Program-made: the position numbers and the translations under genes | Shown here: one piece after another, positions 5,426 to 46,049 of the stretch | Layout: each line of letters opens with the position of its first letter | Numbering within the stretch: the first letter of the stretch is position 1 | The notes under the pieces: model-generated | Database searches by the model: none | What the model saw: the letters and a program-made list of their open reading frames with translations, nothing else | What the model was told of the DNA's origin: nothing | Assembly: GCA_951406725.2 (NCBI GenBank) | Contig: OX597835.1 | Location: 30,628,001-30,692,000 of the forward strand | DNA length: 64,000 nucleotides | Source of the DNA: Octopus vulgaris | Lineage: Eukaryota | Direction of reading: 5' to 3'

Positions 5426-5661
5426 ACACAAAACATCCATGATGGAAACAACAAATGCACATCGATGCACACACACGCACACATATACACACACACGTAT
5501 ATGAATATATGTATACATGCACATACATATATTCAGATACGTATATGTGTAGATGTATATATATACATATACGTATATGTAGATCTATTCATACTTATAG
5601 AAGCATGTGTGCATGTATATATATATATACATACATATATATATATATATATATACATATA

Positions 5662-6997: not shown

Positions 6998-7568
6998 CTA
7001 CTTATATGCACTAAATGTATGTTTCTGCCAATGCTTACATCTGTATGCTCGTTCTATAACCGTGTTTACTAGAGTATTTTTAGAAAAAATAATGAAAAAT
7101 AGCTCAGAATTGCAGAGAAGACAGAATTTCTTGCCTTTGTCATATGGTATCGAAATTGAGAGGATCAATCATTCTAAATGAAATTGTTCATTGTGGTCTT
7201 TTAAATCCCAAAATCAGTTTGCTGAGACCGGTACTATTCCGTTTATTTCTATCCCTAAATGTTGAGTAATGGATAGAAATTCTTTTAGATAACTCTAACG
7301 ATGTGCTTCCAATGTAAAATCGTACTTCATTACGAGTACTGATTATACACTGGTATATAGAATTTTTAATCTTAGAGTTACTTGACATAATATTTCTAGA
7401 GGGTTTGATGGTATTAGCTAAATTAATGTTAGTATTAGTAAATGTATTAATATTTAACAGTTTGTTATTATGAGAGAATATAATTTGCAAGAGATTTTTT
7501 GTGTTTGAAAAACCTATCCTAACCTTATGTGAATTAATTATAGAGTAATATCTAGAATTGTTTGGAAA
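6998..7568 (-). pseudogene. PLE ORF C-terminus: GIY-YIG endonuclease (frameshifted)
   Basis: Reads FPNNSRYYSIINSHKVRIGFSNTKNL..HNNKLL..KNSIYQCII..FYIGST..KRISIHYSTF..STGLSKLI/WDLK..PYDKGKKFCLLCNSE..RCKH. A 1-nt frameshift near 7211 is absent in the inverted copy at 7569-7790. Confidence 0.85.
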
Positions 7569-7787
7569 AGTACCGGTCTCAGCAAACTGATTTGGGATTT
7601 AAAAGACCACAATGAACAATTTCATTTAGAATGGTTGATCCTCTCAATTTCGATACCATATGACAAAGGCAAGAAATTCTGTCTTCTCTGCAATTCTGAG
7701 CTATTTTTCATTATTTTTTCTAAAAATACTCCAGTAAACACGGTTATAGAACGAGCATACAGATGTAAGCATTGGCAGAAACATACA

Positions 7788-7869
7788 TTTCCCGAAGAGA
7801 AGATTGCATTGTTTATACCATTTATTCTTTTGAATAGTATCAGTGGAATTTTCGAAACATGTGTAGAAA
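7788..7869 (+). ncRNA. Second (inverted) copy of the PLE hammerhead, stem I shortened by a deletion
   Basis: UUUC CCGAAGA GAAGAUU...AAUUUUC GAA ACA-UG-UGU A GAAA. Confidence 0.65.
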
Positions 7870-8914
7870 GTAAAAATACTTGTTTAAACCTGCGTTAACT
7901 CCATTTTTTATTCATATTATTCAAAATATTCAACGTAAACACGAAGTTTCAACCTTTATAAACAAGGAGTTACAACATCTTTAGTTGTGAGATTTTTGCT
8001 GCCCTGGTAACTATTCATTTATTTTTCCGTGTTAATTGTTAACAAGGTAAAAATACACTCATCTATTTATATGTATATATATATGTATATAGCTGTTTGT
8101 GTTTTCCTCCAACACCCCTCCTCACCATCTCTTGACAACCAGTGTTCGTATGTTTACGTCCCCGTAACTTAGCAGTTCAGAAAAAGAGCCTGATAGAATA
8201 TCAGGCAGAAAAACTTCAAGATGCTCCCCCAGCATGGCCGCAGTCTAAATACTGGAATAGGTAAGAGATCAAAGATGTATATCTATGTACGTGTATGTGT
8301 GTATGTATGAATGTATGTACGTGTGCATGCATGCGTGTGTGTGTGTATGTGTGTATGTATGTATGTATGTATGTATGTATGTATGTATGTATGTATGTAT
8401 ATGTTAGCCTGTTTTGTGGTTTCATTAGACTTCCAATTTATACAGTGAGTCACACGGGTCATATATATATATATCCTGTTTCTTTAGCTTATTGTGTACA
8501 TATAATACAATACGACCATACCAGCTAAATACAGTTAGTATATTTAACTTTCAGGGACCCCGTCAATCTAAGCATATAGAAAAAGCAGAAATTATGGTCC
8601 CAACAGGCCTCCGTATAACGTACTTTATAATAACTCGCTCAAGACTTCCTCCGCCATCATGGACGTAAAAAACGATCCCCCCCTCCACTGCCATTGCCAA
8701 CTGCTTAAAAAAGAATAATAAATATAATCAAGAAACAATAATATTTAGTATTTCATAAAATTCTTTTCTCTGTATCCAGGTCCCAGAGGTAAATGTGATT
8801 TAAATGAACGGGTTCCGACTGGGAATCGAAATCAGATCGTGGTTTTGGTCCGTCGGGATTCAACAGCTTCTGGTTGAAGAACTTGTGGGCGCTCTCAACC
8901 ACTTTAGTATTTCC

Positions 8915-21985: not shown

Positions 21986-22240
21986 CATGCATGCATACGT
22001 ACATATATACATACATACATGCACTTGCCTCATGTCTTGAAGTCTTTCAAAGAGACCTTCAGAATGCTTGATTCCTTTCGTCAGTTCTTTGTACCTCCTT
22101 TGATAGTTTCATTTAGTATCATAGTTATTGCTGTTTTTGTTTACGCTGCTCTGGCATTTGCTTGTTTGCTTGTTTTTGTTTTTGCATTTTTTTATTGTTC
22201 GTCTTTCTTTCAATTTATTTCGATATTCCGCCATTGTCGT

Positions 22241-23263
<1,023 letters not shown>

Positions 23264-26066: not shown

Positions 26067-27679
26067 ACGCGGGGAGCAAGATCGGATGAATAGGGTGGGT
26101 AGTAAGCGGGGTCACGATTTTTGGGGTTAAAAAATGTCTCACACTCAAGAGAGTGTGCGCAGGTGCATTGTCATGTTAAAACTACCTCTCTTCCACTTTG
26201 CTACAGGTCGGGACGTTTTCGTCTCACTGCATCTCACAAACGCTACAGAACTGCTAAGTAAAATGTCTAGTTAAGAGTTTGGCCAAGAGGAACAAACTCT
26301 GTGTAGACAATTCCTTTCGCATCGTCTTCACATTGAACTTTAATTGAAGCGCTATTGTTGGGCGTGCTTCCATTGACTTGATTGTGGCTTCGTTAATGCG
26401 CCCTTAAATATGGTTTCTGATTACAAATATCTTGGATCATACATATCATCATCTGGAAAAGACTTTCTAACTAGAAAGGGTATGGCCTGGTCAGCCTGTA
26501 ATGACATGCATAAGATCTGGTCATCAAATCTAAGTAGAGACTTCAAACTTGAAATCTTCAAAGCCACAGTCGAACCAATTCTACTATATGGCTCAGAAAC
26601 CTGGACGTTATCAAAGAAGCTTGAGAGGCGGTTGGATGGAACCTACACTCGCCTCCTTATGAGAGCTCAAAATCTCTCGTGGAGGCGCCATCCAACCAAA
26701 ATGCAAATATATGGGAAACTACCACCTGTGTCATCTCTTGTGAAAAGTAGGAGAGTCCAGTTTGCTGGACATTGTTGTAGAGCTGAAAAATAATTTCTAC
26801 TCTTCTCCTCTGGAAGCCATCTACTCGCAATACCAGAGGGCGCACACTCTCCTACCCTGATGTAATCTTCAGGGATACAGGCATCCAGCGACAGGACCTC
26901 CGTAATGCCATGATGGACCGTGAAGTCTGGCGTAGCATGTTAAATTCCACTGTCTCGACCACGGTCGAACAATGATGATGATGATGATGTGGCTTCGTTT
27001 CTGGGTCGCAGCTGTAGTACCAGCTTTCATCACCAATCATGACCTTCAGACAATGGTCCAGATCATCTTCCAGCTGTTCTTTCAGTTCACGAGACGCATT
27101 TAGTCATGACTGCTTTTGATCTTCCTTGAGCAAGCGAGGCACAAATTTTGCTGCAACCCTTTACTTTCGCAATTTCTCGCTCAAAGTTCGTTGGCAGAAG
27201 CTCCAGAACGCACCTGTCATACCAACAAGTTGATCAACTGTTGGTATGACTGACGGTCCTCCAAGATCAGTTCCTGAAATTCTATGAAGTTTTCATTCGT
27301 TCGGGAGGTCGACGGTCTCCCTGAATTAGATTGGCCCTCAAGCGAAAAATGACAGTTCCTAATGCGTAAAAACAACTCGTAAACTTGTGTTTTGCTCACG
27401 GCAGCGTCCTTGTAAGCTGTTTGAAGCATGACAACTATTTCGGACGCCATTTTGCCCAGCAGAAAACAGAATTTCAGAAAACAGAAGCACGCTGTTCCTT
27501 TGTTTCAGCCATTGCAAAACAAAGACGCACCATGTGGCAGTACGACTCCACTCGATGACGCCTTTCAGCAGACTGATGCCTGAGGGTCGCATCAAGTGGC
27601 TTCTAGCGGAGAAAGTCTGAACTACAACTGGCTTGCTCTACAAAGAATGTTTCCTGTTACTTGTGGGTAACCCCACGTA
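26063..27679 (-). mobile_element. Decayed mariner transposon, interrupted by an RTE LINE
   Basis: HTH region (MLQTAYKDAAVSKTQVYE..SGRPSTS), GDESWYYSCDPETKP|QSSQWKH, HDNAPAH and PPYSSDLAP motifs appear in the correct order with stops and frameshifts; TA at the 5' end. Confidence 0.9.
26395..26987 (+). mobile_element. 5'-truncated RTE-clade LINE with (ATG)n tail and 12-bp target-site duplication
   Basis: YKYLGSYI..PILLYGSETWTL..FAGH is an RT C-terminus. TSD tgtggcttcgtt at 26383-26394 and 26988-26999; 3' hairpin tcgacc-ac-ggtcga. Confidence 0.9.
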
Positions 27680-39163: not shown

Positions 39164-40117
39164 AAGGGCTTCTTCCAGTTCCTTTCTGCAGAATCCACTG
39201 ACAAAGTACTGGTGGACCCCAGGCAATGTCAGAAGACACCTTTCCAATGTGTCCCGCAATGAGACTGAACCAGGAACTATGTGGGTCGGAAGCAAAGGGA
39301 AGAGATTCAATGGCTGTACATAAAACTGGTGAAGCTTTGTCTTAAAACTAAGAAACGTGAAAATACGTGGAAACCTGGTCCTGGAAAGGCATTAAATGGT
39401 AAATGTAAAGAACAAAAATAAAGAAATGGGGGAGGCTTAGACATTTTTAGCTAGGCATTTTTAGCTGTGATAACGAACGATTATGATTGTAAAGATCAGG
39501 ATGATGATGAGGAGGAGGATGACGATGATGATCATGATGATCATGATGATGATGTTGAGGAGGAGGAGGAGGAGAAAGTGGAGGAGAAGGAGTTCGATGA
39601 CTACGCTGATGTCGGTGATGATGCTGATGATGCTGATACTGCTGCTGCTGATAATGAGGATGATGATAATGAGGAGGAGGAGGAGAAAGAGGAGGAGGGG
39701 AGGGGGAGTTCGAGAACTACGCCGATGGCGATGAAGATAGTGATGATGCGACACTGCTGCTGCTGCTGATGATGATCATGATGATGATGATCATGATGAT
39801 GCTGGTGATGGTAACATTGAATATGATGAAGACAACGACCATGACAATGACGACATCGATGATGACGGTGACGACGACGACGACGATGTGGAGGAGGAGG
39901 CGAAGGAGGTAGAGGTGGGGAGGATGACAGTGACGATGTTGACGGTGATGTTGTTGTTGATATTAGGGGTGGTGAAGTTGGTCGCGGTTGCAGTGCTGAT
40001 GGTGCCAGTGAAACTGATAATGCTACTAGCAATTTGGAGGACAATGATGGTAACTGCATGACGTCATTGACACCACTAAGCGGTTCTAATAACACCCACA
40101 CTTTCTCCTTCACTTTC

Positions 40118-40595
40118 GCCCAATGGTTTCTCTACATGGCAGAATTAATAGTCAAGACTATTTAAGCATCTTATTTGATCAAATTCATCCTATAGTTGTG
40201 GAACTGTTTCCGGAGGGAAACGCAATCTTTGAGGATGATAATGCGCCAATTCAGGCAGATAAAGTTGTTACTGAATGTTACGAGGAACATTCTAGTGAAG
40301 TTGGACATCTTATCTGGTCACCACAGTCCCCAGTTCTCAATATTATTGAACATTTATGGTGCATTTTAGAAAACCATGTCAGGAGTCGATATCATCCTCA
40401 ATCATCACTACAATAACTGGAGACTGTTTTCGTTTAAGACTGAACAAAAATGTCTTTGGAAACAATTCAAAATTAGTACGAGTCCATACCTCATAGAATT
40501 CAAGCTGTAATTACTGACAAATGCGGTCCTACTCCATATTAAAATAAATTTGTTTGAAACTTTAAGGTGTTTTCTTTATTTTGCCCAGCTTTTGT
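40118..40595 (+). mobile_element. Tc1-like transposase 3' fragment
   Basis: IFEDDNAPIQ...WSPQSPVLNIIEHLW matches the Tc1 DDE motifs; stops follow downstream. Confidence 0.85.
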
Positions 40596-42733: not shown

Positions 42734-42736
<3 letters not shown>

Positions 42737-43129
42737 TGGCTGTGTGGTAAGTAGCTTGCTCACCAACCTCATGGTTCCGGGTTCAGTCCCACTGCGTGGC
42801 ATCTTGGGCAAGTGTCTTCTGCTATAGCCCCGGGCCGAACAATGCCTTGTGAGTGGATTTGGTAGACGGAAACTGAAAGAAGCCTGTCGTATATATGTAT
42901 ATATATATGTATGTGTGTTTGTGTGTCTGTGTTTGTCCCCCTAGCATTGCTTGACAACCGATGCTGGTGTGTTTACGTCCCCGTCACTTAGCGGTTCGGC
43001 AAAAAGAGACCGATAGAATAAGTACTGGGCTTACAAAGAATAAGACCGGGGTCGATTTGCTCGACTAAAGGCGGTGCTCCAGCATGGCCGCAGTCAAATG
43101 ACTGAAACAAGTAAAAGAGAAAGAGAAAG

Positions 43130-43130
<1 letters not shown>
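42734..43130 (+). mobile_element. tRNA-derived SINE family A (CORE-like), full length; further copies at about 552-642, 6449-6600, 8095-8275, 34825-35188, 39165-39295, 40749-40905, 55005-55148 and 60179-60592
   Basis: A/B-box-like head (tggctgtgtggt..ggttcagtccc), cttgggcaagt CORE-like block, internal (TG)n and purine-rich tail; many near-identical copies in the window. Confidence 0.85.
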
Positions 43131-43160
<30 letters not shown>

Positions 43161-43281
43161 TAAAAAGAAGTTCAACCTTGTCTGATTTTCACGTTTTATT
43201 TACAATCTTATAATGATATAAGATAATATAACATATAATAAAATAAAATAAAATAATAGAATGTTAAATGTTCATTCTGAT

Positions 43282-43326
43282 TGAACTAGTACTTTCATGC
43301 ATTAAATTCTGCAATCTTCAGGTTCA
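43282..43326 (-). ncRNA. Minimal type I hammerhead ribozyme (inverted copy)
   Basis: Reverse complement reads UGAAC CUGAAGA U UGCA gaauuuaa UGCA U GAAA GUAC UA GUUCA. Confidence 0.85.
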
Positions 43327-43404
43327 TGTAGTAGTGGTGACAGTCATGCTTCACAATTTTTGACAGTGAAAAAATTGTGAAGCATGACTGTCACCACTAC
43401 TACA

Positions 43405-43449
43405 TGAACCTGAAGATTGCAGAATTCAATGCATGAAAGTACTAGTTCA
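43405..43449 (+). ncRNA. Minimal type I hammerhead ribozyme, canonical core
   Basis: UGAAC CUGAAGA U UGCA gaauucaa UGCA U GAAA GUAC UA GUUCA. Stem I is 5 bp, stem III is the palindrome AGUACU, predicted CUA cleavage after 43444. Confidence 0.85.
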
Positions 43450-43603
43450 ATCAGAATGAACATTTAACATTCTATTATTTTATTTTATTTTATTATATTA
43501 TATTATCTTATATCATTATAAGATTATAAATAAAACATGAAAATCAGACAAGGTTGGACTTCCTTTTATTAATATATTCTTCTATACACAATCACACACA
43601 CCC

Positions 43604-43650
<47 letters not shown>

Positions 43651-43841
43651 TGTATTTGTGTATGTGTGAGTTTAGGTGGATATAATATCCGGGTGGATAT
43701 CGTATTAGCTCTCAGCTAAGTTCCAGTTAACCACAACGATTAGTATTTAGCACCTGTTGTTAGTCACTCCGTGAATTATTCCAATGGGTAATTCCGTGTA
43801 CTTTTCACTGAACGGTGAAAATTGTCTAGAGTATTTATTTT

Positions 43842-44911: not shown

Positions 44912-46049
44912 AAACATAATTATTTCTCAATCTCTCAAAGAGTGATATGCAGTTACATTTCTTTAAAGTAAACATTTGCCAACATAATGTGGCTGTCCTG
45001 GAAGCGACGATTGTTACTGTTTTTTATTGCAGCCCTTATTTGTTCCACGTACTTATCGAGATTTTTACTCACTTTTCCTAGGGCTCCGACAATTATTGGT
45101 ACTACTGCAACCTTTTTCATCGAACACAACTGCTAAACTTCCTAAGCTAACCTGTCATATCTCTCAACTTTTCTTTCCTCCCTATCTCATACCTTGTTCT
45201 CGGCAGGGCATGCTATATCTATGATCCAGCATAGTTTGTTTTCTTTCTCAATTAAGACTATGTCTGGCTTCCTATTCTCTATCTTATGGTCGCACTGAAT
45301 CATAAAATCCCATAAGATCTTTGTATTTTTATTTTCGACAATGCCTTTTTCTTTTCCTTCGAGAGCATTCTAACCCTGTCTGGATTCTTCTTTTCCACCA
45401 TGGATCTTTTCTTTCGTCACTCCCATTATGTTCCTTTTTCTTGGCATTATCACCCACGATTTCAGCTACAACAATACTTGCTGCCTTGATCAAATTATTT
45501 GTTTCTGTGATGTTGTTTGTTCTGACGTATTTCAAAATTTCATTGACATATTTCGTTTCTTGGTTCAATTTCCATCGATCAACCTTTATAAGGTTGCAAA
45601 TAATGTCGCTATCGTTCTCCTGTAGTCTTGCCTTTATTCTGTCTTAGATTGCCTTTTGTTCATTTGTCATGTCACCATTAGTTTTATTGCCTTCTTTTAG
45701 ATCATCTCTATGTCTCTCATCAAGTAAACTACCACTGCTCCTTTCCTGTACTATGGGATTACGCTTATTAATAAGAATTGTATATATATATATATATATT
45801 TGTTATCATTGCTGCTATTTTCCATGATCCGACTTTTGATAGCTTCAAGTTCTATTTCTGTAAACCAACAATTTTTCTTTTACTGCTCAAGCTTCATCAC
45901 ATAGATTCTATTCCGTGAATGGAAACAGTCCCTTTTCCCTCCAATGATCATACATACGTTGTCGACAACACCTAATTTGGGCACCATTTTCATCTATTGG
46001 GCTGCTCAGGTAGTAAGACTCTATGAGCACAGCATTAATTTGCTTGCAC

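Follow-up and report, generated by a model that had tools for sequence, protein, structure and literature searches.

The window analysed in this study, a stretch of 64,000 nucleotides of Octopus vulgaris DNA, contains a long palindrome with a hammerhead ribozyme motif in each arm, which raises the question of how such a structure arose and whether its RNA has a role of its own. The initial annotation envisaged an RNA poised between self-cleavage and folding into dsRNA. Our analysis points to a different answer: the palindrome is probably one insertion of two short pLTR copies of a Penelope-like element (PLE), placed head to head in (TA)n, and likely produced by two reverse-transcription events, each of which reached the 5′ end of the RNA.

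Structure of the palindrome

The palindrome spans 412 bp (43159-43570), the length originally given for it. Its arms (43152-43361 and 43370-43577) pair over 210 aligned columns with six substitutions and one 2-nt gap (96.2% identity), in agreement with their earlier description as near-perfect and approximately 200 bp long. The features of the locus, in which the element is numbered from the A of CAGTC (+1), are as follows:

43130..43157, no strand: (TA)n target microsatellite on the left side, sharing its final letters with the tail-less end of the inverted arm
43152..43364, minus strand: inverted tail-less pLTR copy, element +2 to about +212
43282..43326, minus strand: left-arm type I hammerhead, with C3 at 43321 and cleavage predicted between 43287 and 43286
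43362..43369, no strand: head-to-head junction, a decayed form of the family junction GAC-W-GTC, with its centre at 43365
43365..43577, plus strand: direct pLTR copy, element +1 to +212
43405..43449, plus strand: right-arm type I hammerhead, with C3 at 43410 and cleavage predicted after 43444
43578..43604, plus strand: AC-rich tail (+213 to +239), certain for 27 nt and reaching 34 nt if the shared TA letters from 43571 are included
43605..43647, no strand: right (TA)n target microsatellite

Both flanks consist of (TA)n, as had been noted, which would hide any target-site duplication, and no stop-free frame of at least 110 aa overlaps the palindrome, in keeping with its description as lacking an ORF. 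Two details needed revision. The 8-nt loop is present at 43362-43369, but it is secondary: since 80 loci show the exact junction with a 1-nt centre, the loop of the window copy, which differs from the family junction by one substitution and one added A, is a decayed version of that centre. The tail is one-sided, but of the 34 nt proposed only 27 nt are certain, and the remaining 7 overlap TA-like letters that are also found on the left. The 446-nt stretch has a predicted folding energy of -290.9 kcal/mol (z -42), and none of 100 shuffled sequences folded as well.

The ends of the locus are asymmetric and its parent is an RT element, unlike a MITE, which has symmetric terminal inverted repeats and a transposase parent. 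It also comprises two inverted copies only, and not the direct tandem of non-coding hammerhead monomers found in a non-LTR retrozyme.

The parent Penelope-like element

A search with the right arm and tail as the query gave 1372 candidates, with 40 scored places at 96-100% identity, and many longer copies extend upstream into RT and GIY-YIG coding DNA. Each arm corresponds to the last 212-239 bases of a two-ORF PLE that encodes RT and GIY-YIG. The proposal that the architecture matches an inverted PLE pLTR insertion is thus borne out by the identity of the arms with the end of a PLE and by the one-sided tail.

The whole element, derived from eight long stretches, is a 4271-bp unit containing ORF1 (430 aa), ORF2 (775 aa) and pLTRs, with tandem hammerheads spaced 4271 bp apart. 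The autonomous partner that the initial annotation suggested searching for was found: ORF2 is open in four of the eight stretches (in L115, and together with ORF1 in L114, L119 and L120). Full elements continue after the tail with a short TA run, behind which unique sequence leads up to ORF1. The pLTRs are arranged directly in L114, L119 and L120, and inversely in L116, L117, L121, L034 and L035.

The ORF2 product of L115 (775 aa) contains a GIY-YIG domain above the Pfam cut-off (residues 687-773, E 3e-5) and an RVT_1 match (residues 290-442, E 2e-6) whose 27.9 bits lie below the cut-off of 29.6. By these predicted domains, the parent is an endonuclease-positive PLE, i.e. an RT with a C-terminal GIY-YIG. 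Direct reading of the translation revealed a C-x4-C-x2-C linker and a C-x2-C...H...H motif. A CX2-5CxxC linker before the endonuclease, together with a CCHH motif, is given as the signature of Neptune/Nematis in the relevant part of PMC8557442; judged by its linker and CCHH motif, the parent is of the Neptune/Nematis type and is placed with both clades jointly. At E<=1e-30, ORF2 has 894 relatives among 7991 scored, and those with names are mostly bivalve proteins or symbiont-labelled records. The family was also seen in DNA and presumed RNA runs (4 runs, short contigs).

Several further observations concern the element and its relatives. ORF1 (430 aa) has no Pfam match. ORF2 lies in the -1 frame relative to ORF1 (L114, L119, L120), and the overlap of the two ORFs (e.g. 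L119, minus strand, 5480-5570) contains a seven-T run in slippery register; a -1 frameshift between them is likely, to judge from the reading frames. Repeated ACGTCA/TGACGT words, which we take to be CRE-like, occur between the ORF end and the hammerhead in seven related elements (L157, L160, L162, L165, L166, L237 and L238). PLE sequences 37-54% identical to ORF2 (L237-L241, L162 and L165) are found on small contigs from records of bacterial genomes or metagenomes and are probably host DNA carried into the assemblies.

The fixed junction and the 5′ ends of the copies

The same junction, GAC-W-GTC, is present at no fewer than 80 loci (exact 23-nt matches), while a reversed-pattern control gave none. 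The 5′ ends of the copies cluster at +1. Copies joined to (TA)n at this position make up 130 rows, some plus-strand places being listed twice, or approximately 100 loci; the same pattern was found elsewhere at only three copies beginning near the predicted ribozyme cut and one at +38, and never at an upstream site that also reads TACAG. The 5′ ends were read with a 3′-only query and from pattern counts; a query starting at +6 biases the first 30 loci. Reading through +1 was observed in 1023 copies when both subfamilies are counted and in 179 of the old subfamily only.

Upstream of +1 the element contains a TATA-like box (TATTTATA) at -32 and CCAAT boxes at -138, -121 and -85, whereas both palindrome arms start at +1 and have no such motifs upstream. 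Because of the position of the TATA-like box, +1 is likely the transcription start of the element RNA, as far as can be read from the DNA. The distance from the TATA-like motif to the hammerhead varies among related elements (24-41 nt in L158, L162 and L238), so this spacing cannot confirm the start site.

Alternatively, +1 may be a pause or processing site (an RT stop, a splice acceptor or a cut not made by the ribozyme) within a longer RNA, which would leave the rest of the mechanism proposed below unchanged. The 1023 copies that cross +1 show that longer templates are frequent, the sequence just ahead of +3 looks like a 3′ splice site, and the Penelope element of D. virilis has been described with a TATA-less internal promoter and an intron in its pLTR (PMC2377424). 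However, the 5′ ends fall at -2 to +2 and thus keep the AG that splicing would remove, a single arm has no strong predicted hairpin at +1, and the TATA-like box and the three CCAAT boxes also speak against this explanation. We regard it as unlikely, though worth serious consideration.

Tails and priming sites

The 50 junction loci listed of the 80 were fetched; they were chosen by their exact junction and are therefore silent on palindromes with other centres. One tail is present at 47 of these loci, none at three (each with one arm cut short) and two at none. The tail-less arm ends at +211/+212 in 37 of 47 cases. Letters beyond the tail, toward ORF1, were kept in 7 of 39 scorable tailed arms versus 0 of 35 tail-less ends. 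These retained letters, together with the TA run behind the tail, indicate that priming is internal and that both start sites are TA-rich, like the target.

L003/L067, L021, L010, L029 and L074 have lost part of one arm while retaining the junction, a pattern that palindrome instability would be expected to produce. The seeming rule of a T at +198 in the tail-less arm was rejected as an effect of gap placement, since it disappeared in the 50 loci.

Proposed origin by double priming

In the mechanism that we propose, transcription of the element begins near +1, about 30 nt past the TATA-like box, and both strands of a (TA)n target are nicked by the GIY-YIG domain. The two 3′ ends released in this way would serve as primers at internal sites of the uncut RNA, one at +206 to +212 and the other at the TA run just behind +239, probably through pairing with these TA-rich sites. 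If the sites are used in the copy nearest to the 5′ end, both cDNAs would run off, after 212 and 239 nt, respectively. Around +1 lies an imperfect palindrome of 3-5 nt, through which the cDNA 3′ ends may then anneal; the T-T mismatch left at the centre would be repaired to A or T. The hammerhead would have to be uncut in the template RNAs. The match to the end of the element, the fixed junction, the one-tail rule and the concentration of 5′ ends at +1 are shown directly, whereas we infer the steps and their order from genomic copies only.

Several of these steps have a counterpart in the anole PLE protein studied by Frangieh et al. in 2024. According to the parts of that work dealing with in vitro insertion (PMC11167929), both strands are nicked and extended, synthesis starts at two internal sites that bound the tail, the uncut RNA serves as the template, and ribozyme cleavage is not required. 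The same source provides a point against the TA-pairing step, in that the anole priming site is not homologous to the target.

Alternative origins

In a fold-back origin, which is related to the self-priming model of Arkhipova et al. 2013 (PMC3846280), the tail-primed cDNA would reach +1, fold back and copy itself to +212. That paper takes palindromic junctions as a sign of self-priming, and the perfect one-base symmetry at 80 loci is in line with it. So is the composition of the arms: each of the 38 full palindromes draws on a single subfamily for both arms. Differences between the arms of a palindrome amount to 19 of 3609 columns across 22 young loci and 51 of 2591 across 16 old ones (AT-rich columns 105-160 being left out). 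Divergence is 0.5% within versus 1.0% between loci in the young group, and 2.0% versus 2.7% in the old one. Private variants occur in both arms of one locus in 10 cases, versus 58 in one arm. Such likeness of the arms fits a single source, but it does not separate double priming from fold-back or conversion.

Other evidence goes against fold-back. A 1-nt centre leaves no hairpin loop. Fold-back predicts that the centre letter, read in the tailed orientation, is always A, whereas it is A in 27 and T in 20 of 47 palindromes; the mixture could also come from later inversion between the arms, which would blur this distinction. Moreover, long direct copies also end at +212, and fold-back cannot produce the asymmetric inversions L116 and L117, where the tail is missing from the long direct copy and present on its inverted partner, a 3′ end of the element. 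We therefore consider fold-back distinctly unlikely, and double priming remains the preferred reading.

It is very unlikely that the palindrome is a non-autonomous element copied whole from a few masters, even though many loci agree in size and ends. Each subfamily contains centres of either letter (15 A and 9 T in the young one, 12 A and 11 T in the old one), which is a reason to doubt copying as a unit. In addition, single arms with the same 5′ end are equally common, long inversions have the same two ends, and the palindrome has no upstream promoter-like motifs. It behaves as a by-product rebuilt at each insertion.

The hammerhead motifs

The claim of one hammerhead per arm, on opposite strands and divergent, is correct: both cores are intact and point away from the centre, and C3-A9, G12-A14, A15.1-U16.1 and H17 are present in each. 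The description of the motifs as canonical applies to the core, but not to the stems. Stem I has 5 bp, stem II has 4 bp behind a U10.1-U11.1 mismatch, and stem III has 2 bp within a palindromic 6-mer. No Rfam hammerhead reached the gathering score in the 64-kb window, and none was among the 47 matches up to E 10 in 43100-43700. Rfam miRNA matches were below the cut-off and were dismissed as hairpin or TA noise.

For comparison, motifs were sought behind the ORF of related elements from metagenome and genome contigs; in 7 of the 17 tails inspected there was no hammerhead motif. The core is invariant in eight related motifs, except for N7 and H17. The Watson-Crick pair 10.1-11.1 (consensus G-C) is absent from the octopus family, which has U-U. 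This mismatch is shared by L158, L162, L165, L238 and probably L160, whereas L157, L166 and L237 have G-C, and other forms are found in L161 and L170. In the eight rows aligned, 93.7% of 79 stem cells are paired, a figure that leans upward because the rows were hand-picked as hammerhead-like (8 of 11 motifs behind close relatives). The controls slid along the alignment gave 29-40%. Ten of 11 pairs change on both sides, and none of 500 shuffles reached the stem score (the motifs exceeded all shuffles on four of five measures, and 1 of 500 equalled them on the fifth). This covariation, above shuffles and slid controls, indicates that the motif is, by comparison of its relatives, a conserved hammerhead variant; its stem III is of the dimer type.

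The youngest subfamily, whose copies are 99.3-99.9% alike and have intact ORFs, carries U4C (CCGAAGA), which was found in 58 of the first 100 listed of 1934 matches, those 100 all being on C1. Among 51 loci scored, both cores are whole in the T form in six, and the C4 form is present twice in 19. A predicted free cofold of two hammerhead copies did not produce the dimeric active fold, a result that speaks neither for nor against it. Dimeric PLE hammerheads were reportedly the subject of work by Lunse et al. in 2017.

In the part of their study on variants, Perreault et al. 2011 (PMC3088659) report that U10.1-U11.1 and U4C both occur naturally, that U-U is the best-tolerated mismatch, and that U4C lowers activity in vitro. 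In comparison with the variants covered there, the U-U mismatch here spans a set of related PLEs, and its combination with U4C marks the youngest subfamily. For the metazoan PLE hammerheads (min-HHR), PMC4209133 describes monomers that were uncut and dimers that cut weakly in vitro.

These data bear on the proposed switch between self-cleavage and a 200-bp dsRNA. Both cores are intact and the predicted hairpin is very stable; palindromic repeats are strong ADAR substrates in the frog, and the octopus is heavily edited (PMC5625713). The statement that dsRNA would mask the ribozyme also agrees with the predicted fold, in which a transcript across the palindrome would form a long hairpin hiding it. 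However, there is no promoter motif inside the palindrome. With the two ribozymes on opposite strands, any single transcript would contain just one of them in the sense orientation; the motif is of the dimer type, and a dimer cannot form in cis. Min-HHR monomers did not cleave in vitro in the experiments described in PMC4209133, and few loci retain both T-form cores, as given above. The window copy, with 6 of 161 columns differing between its arms, is among the more decayed and gives no sign of conservation at the locus. The switch is thus unsupported and has very little likelihood. In our reading the hammerhead simply travels with the pLTR; at this locus, read-through would mask it in a hairpin, and it lacks a sense partner in cis.

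An artefact of assembly or library preparation (a fold-back chimera) is highly unlikely, because the arms differ by six substitutions and one gap, 80 loci with different flanks share the junction, the one-tail rule holds across the family, and arm divergence follows subfamily age. No read spanning the locus was present in the four runs of short contigs.

Neighbourhood of the palindrome

No host exon was found near the palindrome among the seven candidate frames scanned. To its left, a high-copy SINE-like repeat (42735-43129, plus strand) with A- and B-box-like words points toward it; near its start, the left arm has T runs at which polymerase III would stop. An open frame at 22244-23263 (minus strand), some 20 kb from the palindrome, contains a full homeodomain (E 5.5e-22) and presumably represents an NK-class homeobox exon.

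The window also contains overlapping frames on opposite strands, at 7191-7598 (minus) and 7533-7895 (plus), which resemble pieces of a GIY-YIG endonuclease but have no Pfam match; judging by this resemblance, they are possibly another inverted PLE insertion. Fragments at 26377-26790, 40093-40413, 27220-27504 and 45332-45643 comprise a LINE-type frame (DUF6451, weak), a DDE_3 transposase, a Mos1-type HTH and one unassigned RT-like piece. Further CUGAnGA...GAAA word pairs, with stems unchecked, are located at 1448 and 27756 (plus strand) and at 22084, 15790 and 14079 (minus strand).

Significance of the family

Taken by itself, the locus is ordinary debris of an abundant retrotransposon, with a footprint repeated at dozens of sites in the genome. 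The family counts, by contrast with any single copy, constrain the open question of how the inverted pLTRs and tails of PLEs are formed: they require a fixed start, two fixed ends with one of each, a mixed centre letter and templates uncut by the ribozyme. With intact young copies available, an in vitro test is possible. Perfect hairpins of this kind would be ADAR substrates wherever they are read through.

A broader reading, which we advance tentatively and hold to be possible rather than probable, is that coupled double priming on a single RNA end has left a natural trace in the 80 palindromes. A dimer of the PLE protein would prime both target strands at two fixed TA-rich sites (one each, 47/50, never two tails), the cDNAs would run off the capped start, and the T-T mismatch would seal the junction. 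The weakened ribozyme (U4C with U10.1-U11.1) of the youngest, expanding subfamily would then imply that transposition in vivo can do without cleavage, or that cleavage is disfavoured there by selection.

Comparison with known systems

Inverted pLTRs with one tail and palindromic junctions have already been published (PMC3846280, PMC8557442, PMC2377424), as have opposite-strand hammerhead pairs (PMC4209133). We found no publication on the octopus PLE family in a literature search that took in few subscription papers and had supplements and Repbase outside its range.

The palindrome resembles the hammerhead pairs of Schistosoma PLEs, in which, as described in PMC4209133, two type I motifs on opposite strands, 100-700 bp apart, come from truncated PLEs and have a palindromic, dimer-type helix III. 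In the main text of the same paper (Cervera and de la Pena 2014), on which this comparison is based and whose supplementary alignments may hold the variant, G10.1-C11.1 is highly conserved, whereas here U10.1-U11.1 precedes a 4-bp stem II. The metazoan non-LTR retrozymes, as presented in bioRxiv 10.64898/2026.07.22.740005, are likewise non-coding, PLE-related and equipped with a type I hammerhead, but they are direct tandems, whereas the palindrome is an inverted pair.

With Poseidon of Anolis, in the portions of PMC11167929 concerned, the octopus element shares two internal RT start sites bounding an AC-rich tail, nicking and extension of both strands, and an uncut RNA template, the last two being part of our proposed mechanism. 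The Poseidon described there has a single ORF starting in the hammerhead and primes without target homology; the octopus element has two ORFs behind the tail, and both of its ends lie in TA runs matching the target.

A further parallel is with the insertions of endonuclease-positive PLEs described in PMC3846280 and PMC8557442, which share (i) a head-to-head inverted 5′-truncated copy, (ii) a tail of 30-40 bp at one end only, (iii) a palindrome at the junction, (iv) a (TA)n target that hides any duplication, and (v) TATA/Inr-like motifs in the pLTR. Unlike the insertions described in those papers, both octopus copies retain no more than the 212-239 nt behind one constant position, and 80 loci have one and the same junction.
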